IMG/VR virus record: IMGVR_UViG_2671180695_000017
DNA: 8,231 nt
Reading direction: 5' to 3' (one strand)
Source: a virus
Taxonomy: Duplodnaviria; Heunggongvirae; Uroviricota; Caudoviricetes
The notes beneath the pieces are model-generated. The model was not told the DNA's origin. It saw only the letters and a program-made list of their open reading frames with translations, and made no database searches. Made by a program: the position numbers and the translations under genes. How positions within the stretch are numbered: position 1 is the first letter of the stretch; every line of letters starts with the position of its first letter. Positions 722 to 7,561 of this stretch are shown here, piece after piece.

Positions 722-1408
722 ATGACCCCAATAAAAATATTTATGACTATTGCTGATTTCAAACGGCCTAAATTGGAGCTCCCAAACGGGGCAAACAAAC
801 TACTACTGCACTCTTGCTGTGCTCCATGTTCCGGTGAAGTGATGGAGGCGCTTCAGGCCTCGGGAATCGACTACACCATCTTTTTCTACAACCCGAACAT
901 TCATCCTCAGAAAGAGTATTTAATTCGTAAGGATGAAAATATTCGCTTTGCTGAACAACACGGCGTGCCGTTTATCGATGCTGATTACGACACCGACAAC
1001 TGGTTTGAACGTGCCAAAGGAATGGAATGGGAGCCTGAGAGGGGGATCCGTTGTACCATGTGTTTTGACATGCGTTTTGAGCGGACAGCGTTGTACGCTG
1101 CTGAAAATGGTTTCAGTGTGATCAGCAGTTCACTGGGCATTTCACGCTGGAAAAATATGCAGCAGGTTAACGAGTGTGGGCGGCGAGCTGTTGCGCATTA
1201 TCCGGGTATGGTGTACTGGGATTATAACTGGCGCAAGCAGGGCGGCTCGTCCCGTATGATTGAAATCAGCAAGCGCGAAAAATTCTATCAGCAGGAATAT
1301 TGTGGCTGTGTGTATTCTCTGCGCGATACCAATCTACACCGCAAATCTCAGGGACGCCCTCTTATCAAAATTGGCCAACTCCACTACGGAAAAGAAGAGA
1401 AGGAGTGA
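722..1408 (+). CDS. QueH-like protein (DUF208 family, putative epoxyqueuosine reductase)
   Basis: 228-aa ORF with the N-proximal motif [11 protein letters not shown], which I recall as the hallmark CCAPC cysteine cluster of DUF208/QueH, plus further conserved Cys (CTMC, CGC). No obvious Shine-Dalgarno before the ATG at 722; an alternative ATG lies at 743. Family assignment is from motif memory, not a search. Confidence 0.55.
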
Positions 1409-3525: not shown

Positions 3526-3906
3526 ATGACTGAACGCATAGAATTTGTTTTGCCTTACCCGCCAACGGTGAACACTTACTGGCGTCGTCGTGGCAGCACA
3601 TATTTTGTATCAAAAGCCGGGGAGCGTTATCGCCGGGCAGTGGCGCTTATTGTTCGCCAGCAGCGGCTGAAATTAAGCCTGTCCGGAAGGTTGGCAATAA
3701 AAATTATTGCAGAACCACCGGATAAGCGCCGCCGTGACCTGGACAATATTCTGAAAGCGCCGCTGGATGCGCTGACGCATGCGGGGTTGCTAATGGACGA
3801 TGAGCAGTTTGATGAAATCAATATCGTTCGTGCTCAGCCAGTATCTGGTGGACGTCTGGGGGTGAAGATTTACCCCATAATGCTTGAAGGGCAGGTCAAA
3901 AAATGA
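3526..3906 (+). CDS. rusA: RusA-family Holliday junction resolvase
   Basis: 126-aa protein with PPDKRRRDLDNILKAPLDALTHAGLLMDDEQ and GGRLGV, matching the conserved RusA core as I recall it for E. coli RusA ([23 protein letters not shown]...DD...GGRL). The ATG overlaps the upstream stop (TAAATG). Confidence 0.85.
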   Translation: MTERIEFVLPYPPTVNTYWRRRGSTYFVSKAGERYRRAVALIVRQQRLKLSLSGRLAIKIIAEPPDKRRRDLDNILKAPLDALTHAGLLMDDEQFDEINIVRAQPVSGGRLGVKIYPIMLEGQVKK

Positions 3907-4724
3907 AACTGGAAGATTTACCGAAATACTACTCCCCAAAATCCCCCGGCCTGACTGATGCATCGGCCTCAACGTCGAAAGATGCGCTGAGTATCACTGA
4001 TGTGATGGCCGCGCAGGGCATGACACCGAATCGGGCTGAGATGGGGTTTTCTGCGTTCCTTGGGAAAATGGGCATTAGTATGAATGACAGAGAGCGGGCA
4101 ACAGAATTGCTGACAGAATATGCACTCAGTCGGTGTGATCGCGTGGCGGCGTTAAGAAAACTCCCGGCAGAAATAAAACCGGTAGTGATGCGCATTATGG
4201 CTTCGTACGCTTTTGAGGATTATGCCCGCAGCGCAGCGAGTAAAAAGCAGTGCCCTTGTTGCTATGGGGAAAAATTTATTGAAAGCGTAGTTTTTACAAA
4301 CAAGGTCCAGTATCCGGATGGTAAGCCGCCGGTATGGGCAAAGTGTACGAAAGGTGTGTATCCGTCTTACTGGGAAGAATGGAAAAAAGTCAGGGAGGTG
4401 GTAAAAGTTGCCTGTCCGGAGTGTGGCGGAAAGGGTGAGGTTTCCACCGCCTGTAAGGATTGCCGTGGGCGTGGTGTCGCCATTCATCGTGAAGAGTCGG
4501 TAAAACGTGGTATGCCTGTTATCAGAGACTGCCAGCGTTGTGGTGGTCGTGGCTGTGAAAGACTACCATCAACGGAGGCATTTAATGCCATATGCAAAGT
4601 GACGAGTGCTATCACGCTTGATACGTGGAAAAAATCAGTGAAACGCTTTTACGATACGTTGGTGGTTCGGTTTGACATTGAAGAGGCATGGGCGGAGCGG
4701 CAGTTAAAGAGGGTAACGCGATAG
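3903..4724 (+). CDS. Putative late-gene antiterminator (Q-like) with DnaJ-type CxxCxGxG zinc-finger repeats
   Basis: Position is diagnostic: directly after rusA (ATGA overlap) and directly before a promoter that matches lambda PR' through its -10 and initial transcribed region. The protein carries CPCC plus three CxxCxGxG repeats (CPECGGKG, CKDCRGRG, CQRCGGRG). The N-terminus resembles what I recall of Qin-prophage Q homologues, but that recollection is not secure. Confidence 0.55.
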   Translation: MKLEDLPKYYSPKSPGLTDASASTSKDALSITDVMAAQGMTPNRAEMGFSAFLGKMGISMNDRERATELLTEYALSRCDRVAALRKLPAEIKPVVMRIMASYAFEDYARSAASKKQCPCCYGEKFIESVVFTNKVQYPDGKPPVWAKCTKGVYPSYWEEWKKVREVVKVACPECGGKGEVSTACKDCRGRGVAIHREESVKRGMPVIRDCQRCGGRGCERLPSTEAFNAICKVTSAITLDTWKKSVKRFYDTLVVRFDIEEAWAERQLKRVTR

Positions 4725-4729
4725 TGTTG

Positions 4730-4770
4730 TTGATTTTTCCCGAATCTGTGGTAAATTTGCTCTAACGATG
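4730..4770 (+). promoter_or_regulatory. Late promoter PR'-like with sigma70-dependent pause element (likely Q-utilisation region)
   Basis: TTGATT (4730-4735), 16-nt spacer, TAAATT (4752-4757), then AACGATGGG (4764-4772). The stretch GGTAAATTTGCTCTAACGATGGG closely parallels lambda PR' as I recall it (GGTAAATTTGACTCAACGATGGG), including the -10-like AACGAT in the initial transcribed region. Confidence 0.5.
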
Positions 4771-4805
4771 GGCGTTTTATGCCTGACGTTAGAAGATTTT
4801 TTACA

Positions 4806-4830
4806 CCCCGCCGCCTGGCGGGTTTTTTAT
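4806..4830 (+). terminator. tR'-like intrinsic terminator downstream of the late promoter
   Basis: Stem CCCGCC / GGCGGG (4807-4812 pairing with 4817-4822), GCCT loop, followed by TTTTTT (4823-4828). Lies ~45-65 nt downstream of the predicted late start, so a short terminated transcript is expected without Q. Confidence 0.6.
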
Positions 4831-4950: not shown

Positions 4951-5148
4951 ATGCTAAAACAGCAGGATATGACAGAAACCGCCAGAGTAGTGTTTAATGA
5001 ATTAAGCGTTACCGAACCGGCGACAGTCGGGGAGATTGCACAGAATACTTACCTTTCACGCGAACGCTGCCAGTTAATACTGACCCAGCTGGTTATGGCG
5101 GGTCTGGCAGACTATCAGTTCGGTTGTTACAGACGCCTTCCGCAGTGA
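4951..5148 (+). CDS. Small putative winged-helix DNA-binding protein (65 aa)
   Basis: ATG at 4951 with AAGGG SD about 8 nt upstream. I prefer this over the tracked GTG at 4864, which has no SD. The stretch TVGEIAQNTYLSRERCQLILTQLVMAGL looks like a helix-turn-helix or winged-helix recognition region. First gene of the Q-dependent late transcript. Confidence 0.45.
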   Translation: MLKQQDMTETARVVFNELSVTEPATVGEIAQNTYLSRERCQLILTQLVMAGLADYQFGCYRRLPQ

Positions 5149-5160
5149 AGGCTTTTTTAT
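5135..5160 (+). terminator. Intrinsic terminator overlapping the stop codon of the small wHTH gene
   Basis: Stem GCCTTC / GAAGGC (5135-5140 pairing with 5147-5152), loop CGCAGT, then TTTTTT (5153-5158). The TGA stop (5146-5148) lies inside the hairpin. Confidence 0.5.
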
Positions 5161-5298: not shown

Positions 5299-6348
5299 AT
5301 GCTTAATACTGTAAAAATATCCAGTTGTGAGTTAATCAACGCCGACTGCCTGGAATTTATCCGGTCGTTACCCGAAAATTCTGTTGACCTGATAGTCACG
5401 GACCCGCCGTACTTTAAAGTGAAGCCTGAGGGCTGGGATAACCAGTGGAAGGGCGACGATGATTACCTGAAGTGGCTGGACCAGTGTCTGGCGCAGTTCT
5501 GGCGGGTGCTGAAACCTGCCGGAAGTCTTTACCTGTTCTGTGGTCATCGCCTGGCATCTGATATCGAAATCATGATGCGTGAACGCTTCAGTGTGCTGAA
5601 CCATATTATCTGGGCGAAGCCGTCCGGACGCTGGAACGGATGCAACAAGGAAAGCCTGCGGGCGTATTTCCCCGCCACAGAGCGCATTCTGTTCGCGGAA
5701 CATTATCAGGGGCCGTATCGTCCGAAAGATGCCGGGTATGCGGCGAAGGGCAGTGCACTGAAACAGCATGTGATGGCCCCGCTGATTTCTTACTTTCGTG
5801 ATGCGCGCGCGGCCCTGGGGATAACGGCAAAACAGATTGCAGATGCCACAGGAAAGAAAAACATGGTGTCGCACTGGTTCAGTGCCAGTCAGTGGCAGCT
5901 ACCGAACGAAAGCGATTATCTGAAATTACAGTCGCTGTTTGCCCGGGTGGCAGAAGAGAAACATCAGCGCGGTGAACTGGAAAAGCCCCACCACCAGCTG
6001 GTGGATACGTATACGTCACTGAACCGGCAGTATGTGGAGCTGCAGAGTGAATATAAGCATCTGCGGCGGTATTTTGGTGTGACGGCGCAGGTGCCGTACA
6101 CGGATGTGTGGACACATAAACCGGTGCAGTTCTATCCCGGGAAACATCCGTGCGAAAAACCGGCAGAAATGCTGCAGCAGATAATCAGCGCAAGCAGTCG
6201 TCCGGGTGACCTGGTTGCAGATTTTTTTATGGGCTCAGGTTCAACGGTAAAAGCTGCACTGGCGCTCGGGCGTCGTGCGATTGGCGTTGAACTGGAGACC
6301 GGACGTTTTGAGCAGACAGTCAGGGAAGTTCAGGATTTAATCGTTTGA
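5299..6348 (+). CDS. Orphan DNA methyltransferase, beta-class (DPPY motif IV N-terminal, FxGxG motif I C-terminal); probably N6-adenine-specific
   Basis: DPPYF at residues 35-39 (nt 5401-5415) and FFMGSGST near the C-terminus (around nt 6224-6247), in the circularly permuted order typical of beta-class amino-methyltransferases. No restriction endonuclease gene is adjacent. Confidence 0.85.
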   Translation: MLNTVKISSCELINADCLEFIRSLPENSVDLIVTDPPYFKVKPEGWDNQWKGDDDYLKWLDQCLAQFWRVLKPAGSLYLFCGHRLASDIEIMMRERFSVLNHIIWAKPSGRWNGCNKESLRAYFPATERILFAEHYQGPYRPKDAGYAAKGSALKQHVMAPLISYFRDARAALGITAKQIADATGKKNMVSHWFSASQWQLPNESDYLKLQSLFARVAEEKHQRGELEKPHHQLVDTYTSLNRQYVELQSEYKHLRRYFGVTAQVPYTDVWTHKPVQFYPGKHPCEKPAEMLQQIISASSRPGDLVADFFMGSGSTVKAALALGRRAIGVELETGRFEQTVREVQDLIV

Positions 6349-6397
6349 AACGGATGAGATTGCAGAATTAATTACGCACCATTATTATTCTGCTTCC

Positions 6398-6473
6398 GGC
6401 CCTTTAGCTCAGTGGTGAGAGCGAGCGACTCATAATCGCCAGGTCGCTGGTTCAAATCCAGCAAGGGCCACCA
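6398..6473 (+). tRNA. tRNA with CAU anticodon, closest to E. coli tRNA-Ile2 (lysidine type, reads AUA); phage ileZ-like
   Basis: Manual cloverleaf: acceptor GGCCCTT/AAGGGCC, D-arm GCTC-AGTGGTGA-GAGC, anticodon loop CTCATAA (CAT at 6431-6433), T-arm GCTGG-TTCAAAT-CCAGC, discriminator A plus encoded CCA. Very similar to E. coli ileX as I recall it. Position 27-43 is an A-C mismatch. Confidence 0.85.
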
Positions 6474-6480
6474 TCACAAA

Positions 6481-6560
6481 CCGCCATTAGCTTATCAGGA
6501 AGAGCAGACGACACGATAACAGGGTTGTTGGTGCGGGGGCGGGTCCCCGATGGCGGTCCA
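6481..6560 (+). pseudogene. Degenerate tRNA-like element between the two tRNAs (possible decayed argN-type tRNA)
   Basis: A 7-bp acceptor-like stem (CCGCCAT 6481-6487 pairing with ATGGCGG 6550-6556) followed by TCCA, a plausible D-arm (GCTT-ATCAGGAA-GAGC) and a 5-bp GC T-like stem (6534-6538 / 6545-6549). But the T-loop is 6 nt (GCGGGT, not TTCRANY) and I could not fold a canonical anticodon arm. Confidence 0.25.
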
Positions 6561-6573
6561 TTATCGGTATTCA

Positions 6574-6650
6574 GCGTTGTTAGCTCAGCCGGACAGAGCA
6601 ATTGCCTTCTAAGCAATCGGTCACTGGTTCGAATCCAGTACAGCGCGCCA
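6574..6650 (+). tRNA. tRNA-Arg (anticodon UCU, reads AGA/AGG); phage argO/argN-like
   Basis: Manual cloverleaf: acceptor GCGTTGT/ACAGCGC (one G-U pair), D-arm GCTC-AGCCGGACA-GAGC, anticodon stem ATTGC/GCAAT with loop CTTCTAA (TCT at 6608-6610), T-arm ACTGG-TTCGAAT-CCAGT, discriminator G plus CCA. Resembles E. coli argU. Confidence 0.85.
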
Positions 6651-6757
6651 TATTCATTCTTCCAGATTCCTTTCGGCAGAGCCTTATACTGAAATATACC
6701 TGGCTCAGGATATTGTTGAAAATATTATATGTTTGTCAAAAATAAAAGTTCTGTTAA

Positions 6758-7281: not shown

Positions 7282-7505
7282 CCGGGTATCAGTTAGCGGG
7301 AGAAATTTTTAAATACTTCACAATTCAGGCGGTTGATTGTTGTCTGGTTTGCGGGGAGTTTGTTAAAAGAAACTGGCATGGTGAATCCCCCTGTGCGGAG
7401 GGGCAATCAGCGAGTAGGTATATGGGATAATCGCGGATTCAGGTGCTGGTACTGAATTCACCGGGAGGCACCCGGCACCATGCAATGGCACATAGCGCCA
7501 CTCTC

Positions 7506-7535
7506 CAGCCCCTCTCCGGAGGGGCTGTTTATATT
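7506..7535 (+). terminator. Strong intrinsic terminator (+ strand) between the convergent cargo ORFs
   Basis: Perfect 9-bp GC-rich stem CAGCCCCTC / GAGGGGCTG (7506-7514 pairing with 7519-7527), TCCG tetraloop, followed by TTTATATTGATTTT. The opposite strand lacks a T-tract after the hairpin, so it is oriented to stop + strand transcripts. Confidence 0.55.
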
Positions 7536-7561
7536 GATTTTGTCAGATGTGAGTAAACTCC

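Follow-up and report, generated by a model that had tools for sequence, protein, structure and literature searches.

Lambdoid and Shiga toxin (Stx) prophages are known to carry clusters of tRNA genes that serve rare codons, with tRNAs for AUA and AGA/AGG. In the Stx2 phage 933W, the cluster consists of ileZ, argN and argO; it follows the gene for the Q antiterminator and precedes a cargo slot, which in this phage is occupied by stx. The DNA considered here is the whole 8,231-nucleotide (nt) stretch of the IMG/VR virus record IMGVR_UViG_2671180695_000017, referred to as the window, which lambdoid prophages of sequence type 131 (ST131)-type and other E. coli match end to end at 98.8% identity. 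Positions 6398-6650 of the window are a rare-codon tRNA cluster of a lambda-like E. coli prophage, of the same type as ileZ-argN-argO of 933W. The cluster as such and its two flanking tRNAs are already known biology; what is new is the degenerate allele that lies between them at 6481-6560, here called the middle element, and the widespread family to which it belongs. The middle element is, to judge from its sequence, a derivative of a tRNA-Arg gene of the argN lineage that is unable to decode.

The middle element as an argN derivative

How does the cluster compare with that of 933W? Window positions 6350-6658 align with the 933W sequence at 86.6% identity over 309 nt, and gene order and orientation are the same, with Q followed by the tRNAs and then by the cargo slot. 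The ileZ genes are identical, two positions distinguish the argO genes, and both spacers match almost completely. The alignment is collinear and places the middle element at the position of argN, which bears out the likeness to the Stx phage cluster that had been proposed in a preliminary description of this DNA made from the sequence alone. With 933W argN the middle element shares its acceptor strands, D stem, CCA and flanks, and the same layout, in which an element with homologous flanks and acceptor lies between ileZ and argO, is found in 183 IMG/VR loci. The divergence is confined to the interior: a 23-nt segment (GCCAGCCUUCGAAGCUGGCUGCG) is replaced by 28 unrelated nt (AGACGACACGAUAACAGGGUUGUUGGUG), the D-loop is 1 nt shorter, with A20 retained, and the T-loop has changed from UUCGAGU to GCGGGU. 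933W argN is a canonical 77-nt tRNA-Arg(UCG), whereas in the middle element no canonical loop presents UCG or the Arg identity base C35.

The 80 nt of the middle element, on the plus strand, have the shape of a tRNA and a cloverleaf-like minimum-energy fold. The acceptor stem CCGCCAU/AUGGCGG (6481-6487 and 6550-6556) has seven Watson-Crick pairs, and it is followed by U73 (6557) and an encoded CCA (6558-6560). The D arm (6490-6505) reads GCUU-AUCAGGAA-GAGC, with G18-G19 and A20 present, and the T arm (6534-6549) has the stem CGGGG/CCCCG. The T-loop (GCGGGU, 6539-6544, plus strand) is aberrant: it has 6 nt, lacks U54-U55 and lies inside a run of G whose length shifts by slippage from one related locus to another. 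The segment for the anticodon and variable region (6506-6533) measures 28 nt, compared with 23 in a tRNA. The place of the anticodon arm is taken by the hairpin AUAAC-AGG-GUUGU (6516-6528, plus strand; AUAAC at 6516-6520 and GUUGU at 6524-6528), which has 5-7 bp (7 bp in the minimum-energy fold) and the 3-nt loop AGG, and in an alternative register a 6-bp stem and an 11-nt loop. Both the fold and direct reading of the sequence reveal that there is no 7-nt anticodon loop and no U33. The acceptor-like stem, D arm, GC T-like stem and non-canonical 6-nt T-loop noted in the preliminary description can all be read directly from the sequence. By contrast, its statement that no anticodon arm could fold has to be amended: the region does fold, and it is the 7-nt anticodon loop that cannot form. 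The lack of both an anticodon loop and U54-U55 shows that the element, as predicted from its sequence, cannot decode.

Searches for tRNA genes lead to the same view. ARAGORN reports two tRNAs and no more for the window, at 6398-6473 and 6574-6650, and never called 6481-6560 at the default, 95, 90 or 80% thresholds or with introns allowed; nor did the Rfam tRNA model RF00005 give a match over 6481-6560 in a search of 6350-6720 at E ≤ 10. This agrees with the expectation, set down beforehand, that 6481-6560 is not a canonical tRNA. The sole extra ARAGORN call at 80% is antisense and overlaps argO, and it was judged spurious, while an Rfam match to YrlA across parts of ileZ and the middle element, obtained for 6350-6720 at a lax threshold (E = 1.1), is at chance level. 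The NCBI Prokaryotic Genome Annotation Pipeline (PGAP) annotates only tRNA-Ile and tRNA-Arg in the ST131 genome NZ_CP015085, which carries an identical 81-nt element. Set beside a canonical tRNA, the middle element falls short in model score, anticodon loop and T-loop, and conforms in its acceptor, discriminator, CCA and D arm with G18-G19.

Folding energy is not counted as evidence, as comparison with shuffled sequences gave no significant result for any member of the family described below (z = -1.1 to -1.9; -1.3 to -1.9 for the window element). The signal beyond chance is instead homology: the acceptor strands, the D stem and the two spacers hardly differ from those of 933W argN. The middle element would properly be filed as an argN-derived pseudo-tRNA or tRNA-like element.

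The flanking tRNAs and spacers

The two flanking tRNAs, both on the plus strand, were described at the outset as intact tRNAs of the Ile2 type (CAU) and of Arg-UCU, and this assignment holds. The first, of ileZ type (6398-6473), is called by ARAGORN with anticodon CAT (Met/Ile2 type), scores 72.5 bits with RF00005, for which the gathering score is 29 bits, and is annotated by PGAP as tRNA-Ile in NZ_CP015085. The PGAP call and the acceptor pairs C4:G69 and C5:G68 suggest that this tRNA is of the tRNA-Ile2 type, and it is expected to read AUA after lysidine modification. The second, of argO type (6574-6650), is called by ARAGORN as tRNA-Arg (TCT), scores 68.0 bits and is labelled tRNA-Arg by PGAP; its UCU anticodon corresponds to AGA/AGG. 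Between ileZ and the middle element lies the 7-nt spacer UCACAAA (6474-6480, plus strand), identical in 101 of 104 related loci of the window type. The AU-rich 13-nt spacer UUAUCGGUAUUCA separates the middle element from argO (6561-6573, plus strand) and occurs as four haplotypes among the same loci.

The sequence of ileZ is the same in 99 of the 104 loci, and in 16 of them the T stem of argO has undergone a compensatory double change. The encoded CCA of argO (window 6648-6650) reads CTA in 18 of the 104, a common haplotype, and maturation of such a tRNA would require trimming and the addition of CCA. Decay can also reach other genes of these clusters: in locus L081 (approximately 150-235), a decayed ileZ (GGCCATTTAGAGCCGTGGTTAGAGCGTCTACTCATAATCGCCCGGTCGTTGCTTCAAGCCCAATAAGGGGCACCA) that is no longer called by ARAGORN lies upstream of an element related to the middle element of the window.

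A family of anticodon-less tRNA-like elements

Is the middle element peculiar to this prophage type? The first three scans of the IMG/VR collection used patterns that selected on parts of the element itself, and sampling was therefore repeated, before rates were compared, with the upstream tRNA as the bait. In this second sample, the 3' end of a diverged ileZ-like tRNA served to pick out 122 phage contigs, and the next element downstream was recorded. In 49 of the 122 loci this was a tRNA-Arg-derived, tRNA-like element with an aberrant anticodon arm; such elements define the family termed X in this analysis. A canonical 77-nt tRNA-Arg (UCU or UCG) followed in 32 loci, tRNA-Gly followed directly in 12 and tRNA-Thr directly in one. 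A further eight loci contained a heavily decayed remnant of X with no tRNA further downstream, and 20 had nothing tRNA-like. Literature searches on ileZ/argN/argO, on a yahM tRNA-like element and on lambdoid or prophage tRNA-like elements found no description of the degenerate element.

Members of X have the acceptor CCGCCAY/RUGGCGG, the 8-nt D-loop AUCRGGAA and, in nearly every copy outside the window type, the T-loop UUCGAGN. The anticodon stem is AYAAC, GCAAC or ACGAC paired with GUUGU, the AYAAC/GUUGU combination being typical of the family. It encloses a loop of 3-8 nt that is unlike even in close relatives (CAUUAA, CCAGGU, UAAAU, CUCAAU, CAUUGAU and others), and where a 7-nt loop occurs it carries A33 or G33. 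The anticodon/variable segment is 16-28 nt in 53 X haplotypes; by comparison, canonical haplotypes keep it at 23 nt (37 of 38), with a single one at 22. The discriminator base is A in 27 X haplotypes, U in 21, G in three and C in two, and this variability speaks against a fixed aminoacylation identity.

The window element follows an ileZ-like tRNA(CAU) and has the acceptor, the 8-nt D-loop and the AUAAC/GUUGU stem, with a loop that is not a 7-mer with U33; it lacks the canonical T-loop typical of X. A UUCG-type T-loop is found in 41 of the 53 X haplotypes, and loops of the GCGGGU type are confined to the E. coli prophage type seen in the window. Its hairpin AUAAC-AGG-GUUGU is homologous to CGAUAAC-CAUUGAU-GUUGU-AGGUG of X elements of the kind found in loci L351 and L279. 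A local 5-nt duplication of CGACA had been considered as the source of CGAUA in the anticodon segment of the window, and was dropped once CGAUAAC...GUUGU-AGGUG was found in distant X copies. An ileZ-like tRNA in another IMG/VR locus (L330) is followed directly by a chimera, in which the 5' half of X is fused at a shared GAGCAAC to the 3' two-thirds of tRNA-Thr(UGU). The acceptor strands of the chimera are unable to pair, and it looks as though two neighbouring tRNA-like genes had recombined, with a deletion as the outcome.

It is hardly credible that such an element still decodes as an atypical tRNA, for instance one that promotes frameshifting or acts as a suppressor and is missed by standard detectors. 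The loop of the window element (3 nt, or 11 nt in the alternative register) and the T-loop without U54-U55 argue against decoding, as does the absence of an Rfam match, even though the acceptor stem, CCA, G18-G19 and A20 are in place. ARAGORN does report many X relatives with 6-nt loops as 'tRNA-???' with a two-base anticodon, and the copy in the K-12 chromosome described below as tRNA-Ser(GGA); nevertheless, changes in loop length and sequence among close relatives, together with a discriminator that is not fixed, rule out a conserved identity for decoding or charging, and the 7-nt loops of the family lack U33.

Mean pairwise divergence was compared between X loci (n = 48) and canonical tRNA-Arg loci (n = 32). 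The two sets diverge to a similar degree in the 5' part of the neighbouring ileZ (4.3% for X and 5.0% for tRNA-Arg), in the acceptor 5' strand with the D arm (8.5% and 6.1%) and in the T arm with the acceptor 3' strand (8.4% and 7.7%). By contrast, the anticodon/variable segment has diverged by 28.5% in X and 4.9% in tRNA-Arg, and evolves approximately six times faster in X. Covariation gives only weak statistics, as the conserved arms show almost no variation and the acceptor pair 7:66 alone switches on both sides. This pair changes from U:A to C:G with zero mismatches in 34 of 34 sequences, while the arms are otherwise nearly invariant. Pairing in the anticodon helix amounts to 73%, which is an underestimate as the stem columns were partly misaligned by MAFFT. 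A tRNA-level divergence outside the anticodon arm, combined with rapid change within it, indicates that X is held in the shape of a tRNA by selection while the anticodon loop drifts. The conservation of X is hard to reconcile with simple decay and suggests that tRNA shape alone is selected, whether for precursor processing or for a role in trans.

Could the AYAAC/GUUGU inverted repeat matter at the level of DNA instead? Integrases commonly target the anticodon loops of tRNA genes, and the repeat might serve for recombination or attachment, or be what repeated integrations in the anticodon loop have left behind. The concentration of family variation between two short inverted repeats would fit this idea, and a few loci do have breakpoints within the element (the deletion in L151, L152 and L164, and the chimera in L330). 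A DNA-level role is nevertheless very improbable. The repeats are only 5 bp long, and none of more than 200 copies has an inserted mobile element or a duplicated half-site beside it; an insertion sequence (IS) in L208 lies in the T arm. Moreover, selection on DNA would preserve neither acceptor pairing through the switch from U:A to C:G nor an encoded CCA.

Allele series and relaxed constraint in window-type elements

Pattern scans of IMG/VR yielded a graded series of alleles. Its mildest forms are canonical argN and argN with the T-loops UUCGGGU, GUCGAGU or CUCGGGU. In L053, a canonical anticodon arm is combined with the T-loop GGCGGGU, and the allele still scores 45 bits in the Rfam tRNA model; in L125, the anticodon arm of the window is combined with a canonical T arm, and PGAP labels the gene 'tRNA-OTHER'. 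The window-type allele combines both lesions, in the anticodon arm and in the T-loop.

Within the 104 window-type loci, the middle element occurs as 14 haplotypes, compared with a single ileZ sequence in 99. Four independent uncompensated changes break the acceptor of the middle element in 10 loci, and the T-loop variants GGCGGGU, CCGGGU and CGGG- are found in related loci, with length slippage in the G run. A few related loci have deletions or truncations inside the element, including a deletion that begins after GUUGUUG in L151, L152 and L164, and the IS insertion of L208. Seen against the compensated change in argO, these acceptor breaks, T-loop slippage, truncations and IS insertion suggest that the window-type middle element is under relaxed constraint. 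The window allele would be the most degraded form of the X family and shows signs of relaxed constraint in its sequence variation.

A possible spacer role in the tRNA precursor

What might an element of this kind do? The preliminary description left the choice between a decayed tRNA and a tRNA-derived element with another role. The derivation from tRNA-Arg and the failure to decode are upheld, and the element is a common, structured allele and not a random wreck. On balance, the middle element is probably, though by no means assuredly, a non-decoding derivative of argN that is transcribed with its neighbours and cut out as a passive, processable spacer. It would be transcribed together with ileZ and argO, and RNase P and 3' exonucleases would still excise it because a perfect 7-bp acceptor, CCA, D arm and T stem are kept. 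At most it would serve as a spacer between ileZ and argO, uncharged and taking no part in translation. The sequence requirements of an RNase P substrate, an acceptor stacked on the T stem and a 3' UCCA, are present in the middle element. An acceptor/T-arm helix with CCA suffices for RNase P, and a dead tRNA can still mark a cut in a precursor.

The wider family offers a reason in cis to keep the shape without the anticodon. In most X clusters, the spacer behind ileZ is only 1-2 nt, so that an RNase P cut at X would set the 3' end of ileZ. The sole heavily decayed lineage of X has no tRNA downstream, which fits a role in cis. The E. coli prophage type has AU-rich spacers of 7 and 13 nt, and this may be why its allele can afford a broken T-loop.

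Several observations weigh against a passive spacer. Transcription, RNase P cleavage and stability of the middle element are all inferred. The window allele is the commonest form in E. coli prophages: its 100 nt are found at an identity of at least 90% in 1,791 complete E. coli genome records, while canonical argN is present in 1,216 of 5,426 complete genomes. Such abundance is unexpected for a useless relic, although hitch-hiking with successful prophages could explain it. The AYAAC/GUUGU stem is retained throughout the family, and RNase P makes no contact with the anticodon stem. Finally, a lone, fully conserved chromosomal copy with no neighbouring tRNA cannot be explained by a role in cis as punctuation or spacer.

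A solitary copy upstream of yahM and a possible role in trans

This solitary homologue of the middle element is an unannotated 81-nt element on the minus strand of the E. coli K-12 chromosome (NZ_CP032667.1, 3536888-3536968; L124, 2508-2588), just upstream of the annotated start of yahM and overlapping it. All 81 nt, including the anticodon arm, are identical in E. coli, E. albertii, E. whittamii, E. ruysiae and Escherichia sp. E1V33. The surroundings are far less conserved: the 135 nt upstream are 83-90% identical across those species, the downstream sequence is unalignable, and the yahM open reading frame (ORF), which lacks conservation beyond E. coli and Shigella, is deleted or unalignable in the other four of these species. 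The copy is present in 5,169 of 5,426 complete E. coli genomes (95%) and identical in 4,822 records, compared with only 2,964 for the adjacent 81 nt. A conserved, near-consensus sigma-70 promoter (TTGACA-N16-CATAAT) lies approximately 100 nt upstream. The loop has A33 in spite of the tRNA-Ser(GGA) label given by ARAGORN, and the Rfam tRNA model gives no match. This copy represents a tractable locus in K-12 for probing what an anticodon-less tRNA does.

These data bear on an alternative that is possible but doubtful, namely that the middle element is a functional tRNA-like RNA acting in trans, which would need the 'elbow' formed by the acceptor, D and T arms and no anticodon. Such an RNA might act as a regulator, or it might capture a tRNA-binding enzyme, a toxin or a defence nuclease in the manner of a decoy or sponge. 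A trans-acting RNA would explain why constraint outside the anticodon arm remains at the level of a tRNA while a loop of 3-8 nt is free to vary, and why X outnumbers canonical tRNA-Arg in a sample chosen by the upstream tRNA. Its strongest support comes from the yahM-linked copy, identical in five Escherichia species with diverged flanks and more uniform within E. coli than the sequence adjacent to it. Reg-seq experiments found an active yahM promoter, repressed by IHF (10.1101/2025.05.13.653802), and this is the promoter of the yahM-linked copy. However, X has no known target, partner or phenotype. The hypervariable loop looks neutral, unlike a conserved recognition site, and X is cleanly missing from the Yersinia phage YeP1 (where tRNA-Met is followed by tRNA-Gly) and from 12 IMG/VR loci. 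The window allele has a T-loop that departs from the family norm and, across the population, acceptor mismatches without compensation as well as slippage variants; this has the appearance of a decaying family function, whatever that function is.

Taken at its widest, the trans-acting alternative would make X an undescribed, anticodon-less family that arose from phage tRNA-Arg genes and is selected in enterobacterial phage clusters for a function independent of the anticodon, a proposal that can be advanced only tentatively. It would also imply, just as speculatively, that the host captured one copy, which now forms part of the Escherichia core genome as an unannotated gene driven by a promoter and placed upstream of yahM. 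Titration of a tRNA-binding enzyme, toxin or defence factor is the example of such a function that comes to mind, and is no less conjectural. The passive spacer is preferred here for the window element.

Prophage setting and codon usage

The tRNA region lies in a gene order that was read from Pfam and PGAP: DUF977, QueH, hok/sok, DUF968 and RusA are followed by the Q antiterminator (3903-4724), a DNA methyltransferase (5299-6348) and the tRNA region. DUF3927 and IraM are encoded 3' of the tRNAs on the minus strand, and a sialate-esterase gene starts at approximately 8018. Together with an STnc100-type small RNA (sRNA), DUF3927/IraM form the cargo after the cluster, at the place where 933W carries stx. 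Two terminator-like hairpins are found right behind Q (4758-4774 and 4807-4822, plus strand), and a third such site precedes the methyltransferase gene (5135-5152). The hairpins next to Q fit a pR'/tR' layout and would place the tRNA region in a late, Q-dependent transcription unit, as in 933W. In addition, a putative promoter of the tRNA cluster (TTGCAG-N17-TATTAT, 6360-6388, plus strand) was mapped by alignment from the annotation of 933W (L001, 1511-1539), where its counterpart is labelled 'pT; putative tRNA promoter'; the site at 6360-6388 scores under the cut-off of a simple promoter scan. Two ORFs that overlap the cluster (6452-6616, minus strand, and 6525-6692, plus strand) were set aside, as they have TTG starts, lie inside tRNA genes and are unannotated in relatives.

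Other features of the prophage concern RNA in different ways. QueH, an epoxyqueuosine reductase of tRNA queuosine modification, is encoded at 722-1408 (plus strand; Pfam E = 1e-65), approximately 5 kb upstream of the cluster. A type I toxin-antitoxin locus of the hok/sok type occupies 1476-1651 and 1589-1801, both on the plus strand, with an Rfam sok score of 120.5 bits and an overlapping ORF with a Hok/Gef domain. The STnc100-family sRNA at 7347-7536 (plus strand; 132 bits) has its own terminator at 7506-7527 and lies directly upstream of the sialate-esterase gene; an sRNA of the same type is found downstream of the tRNA cluster in L053, L125, L140 and L081. Related PasD/STnc100 prophage sRNAs have been described at that same position, upstream of the sialate-esterase gene (10.64898/2026.05.13.724894).

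Codon usage was taken from the related phage mEp460, which is 98.3% identical across the cluster. The rates per thousand codons in late and early genes, respectively, are 5.7 and 15.3 for ATA, 3.9 and 10.2 for AGA, 3.4 and 5.1 for AGG, 5.8 and 5.1 for CGA, and 12.3 and 9.7 for CGG. In E. coli genes, the corresponding rates are approximately 4 for ATA, 2 for AGA, 1 for AGG, 3.5 for CGA and 5.5 for CGG. Thus, the phage is enriched in all five codons, among them CGA and CGG, the two that a functional argN would read. In many E. coli prophages, what stands as the third gene, argN, does not encode a tRNA, and counting three rare-codon tRNAs in each cluster overstates their capacity to decode CGA and CGG.

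Comparison with described systems

How do these elements relate to what has been described before? Genes annotated as 'tRNA-OTHER' by PGAP or 'tRNA-???' by ARAGORN in enterobacterial phage clusters belong to the same family as the window element. The window allele differs from them in that its T-loop is also broken; it falls below the thresholds of the detectors and is left unannotated. The annotation of X-type elements is therefore inconsistent, ranging from none to 'tRNA-OTHER' or 'tRNA-???'.

Even the canonical gene may contribute little to translation in this host. When argN5 was expressed from pRARE2, tRNA-seq recovered only fragments (10.1101/2025.08.20.671396), which suggests that canonical argN is itself a marginal tRNA in E. 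coli.

The mechanism proposed for the middle element would, by analogy, resemble that of tRNA-like units cut by RNase P, such as those of polycistronic tRNA operons in E. coli or of the mascRNA type. The window element differs from them in its non-canonical T-loop, and its spacers of 7 and 13 nt are such that RNase E could separate the tRNAs alone.

The closest functional parallels, next to such units, are RNAC and RNAD of phage T4, which carry tRNA-like 3' ends. These RNAs (species 1 and 2) are small, stable non-tRNA RNAs from the T4 tRNA gene region, with a role that is unknown (PMC3014915), and they offer a precedent for a tRNA-like RNA acting in trans. They are longer than X and do not replace a tRNA position by position, and no sequence relationship to X is expected. 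Nevertheless, like the middle element, they are encoded among phage tRNA genes, and they are released from the same precursors as the tRNAs (PMC3014915).

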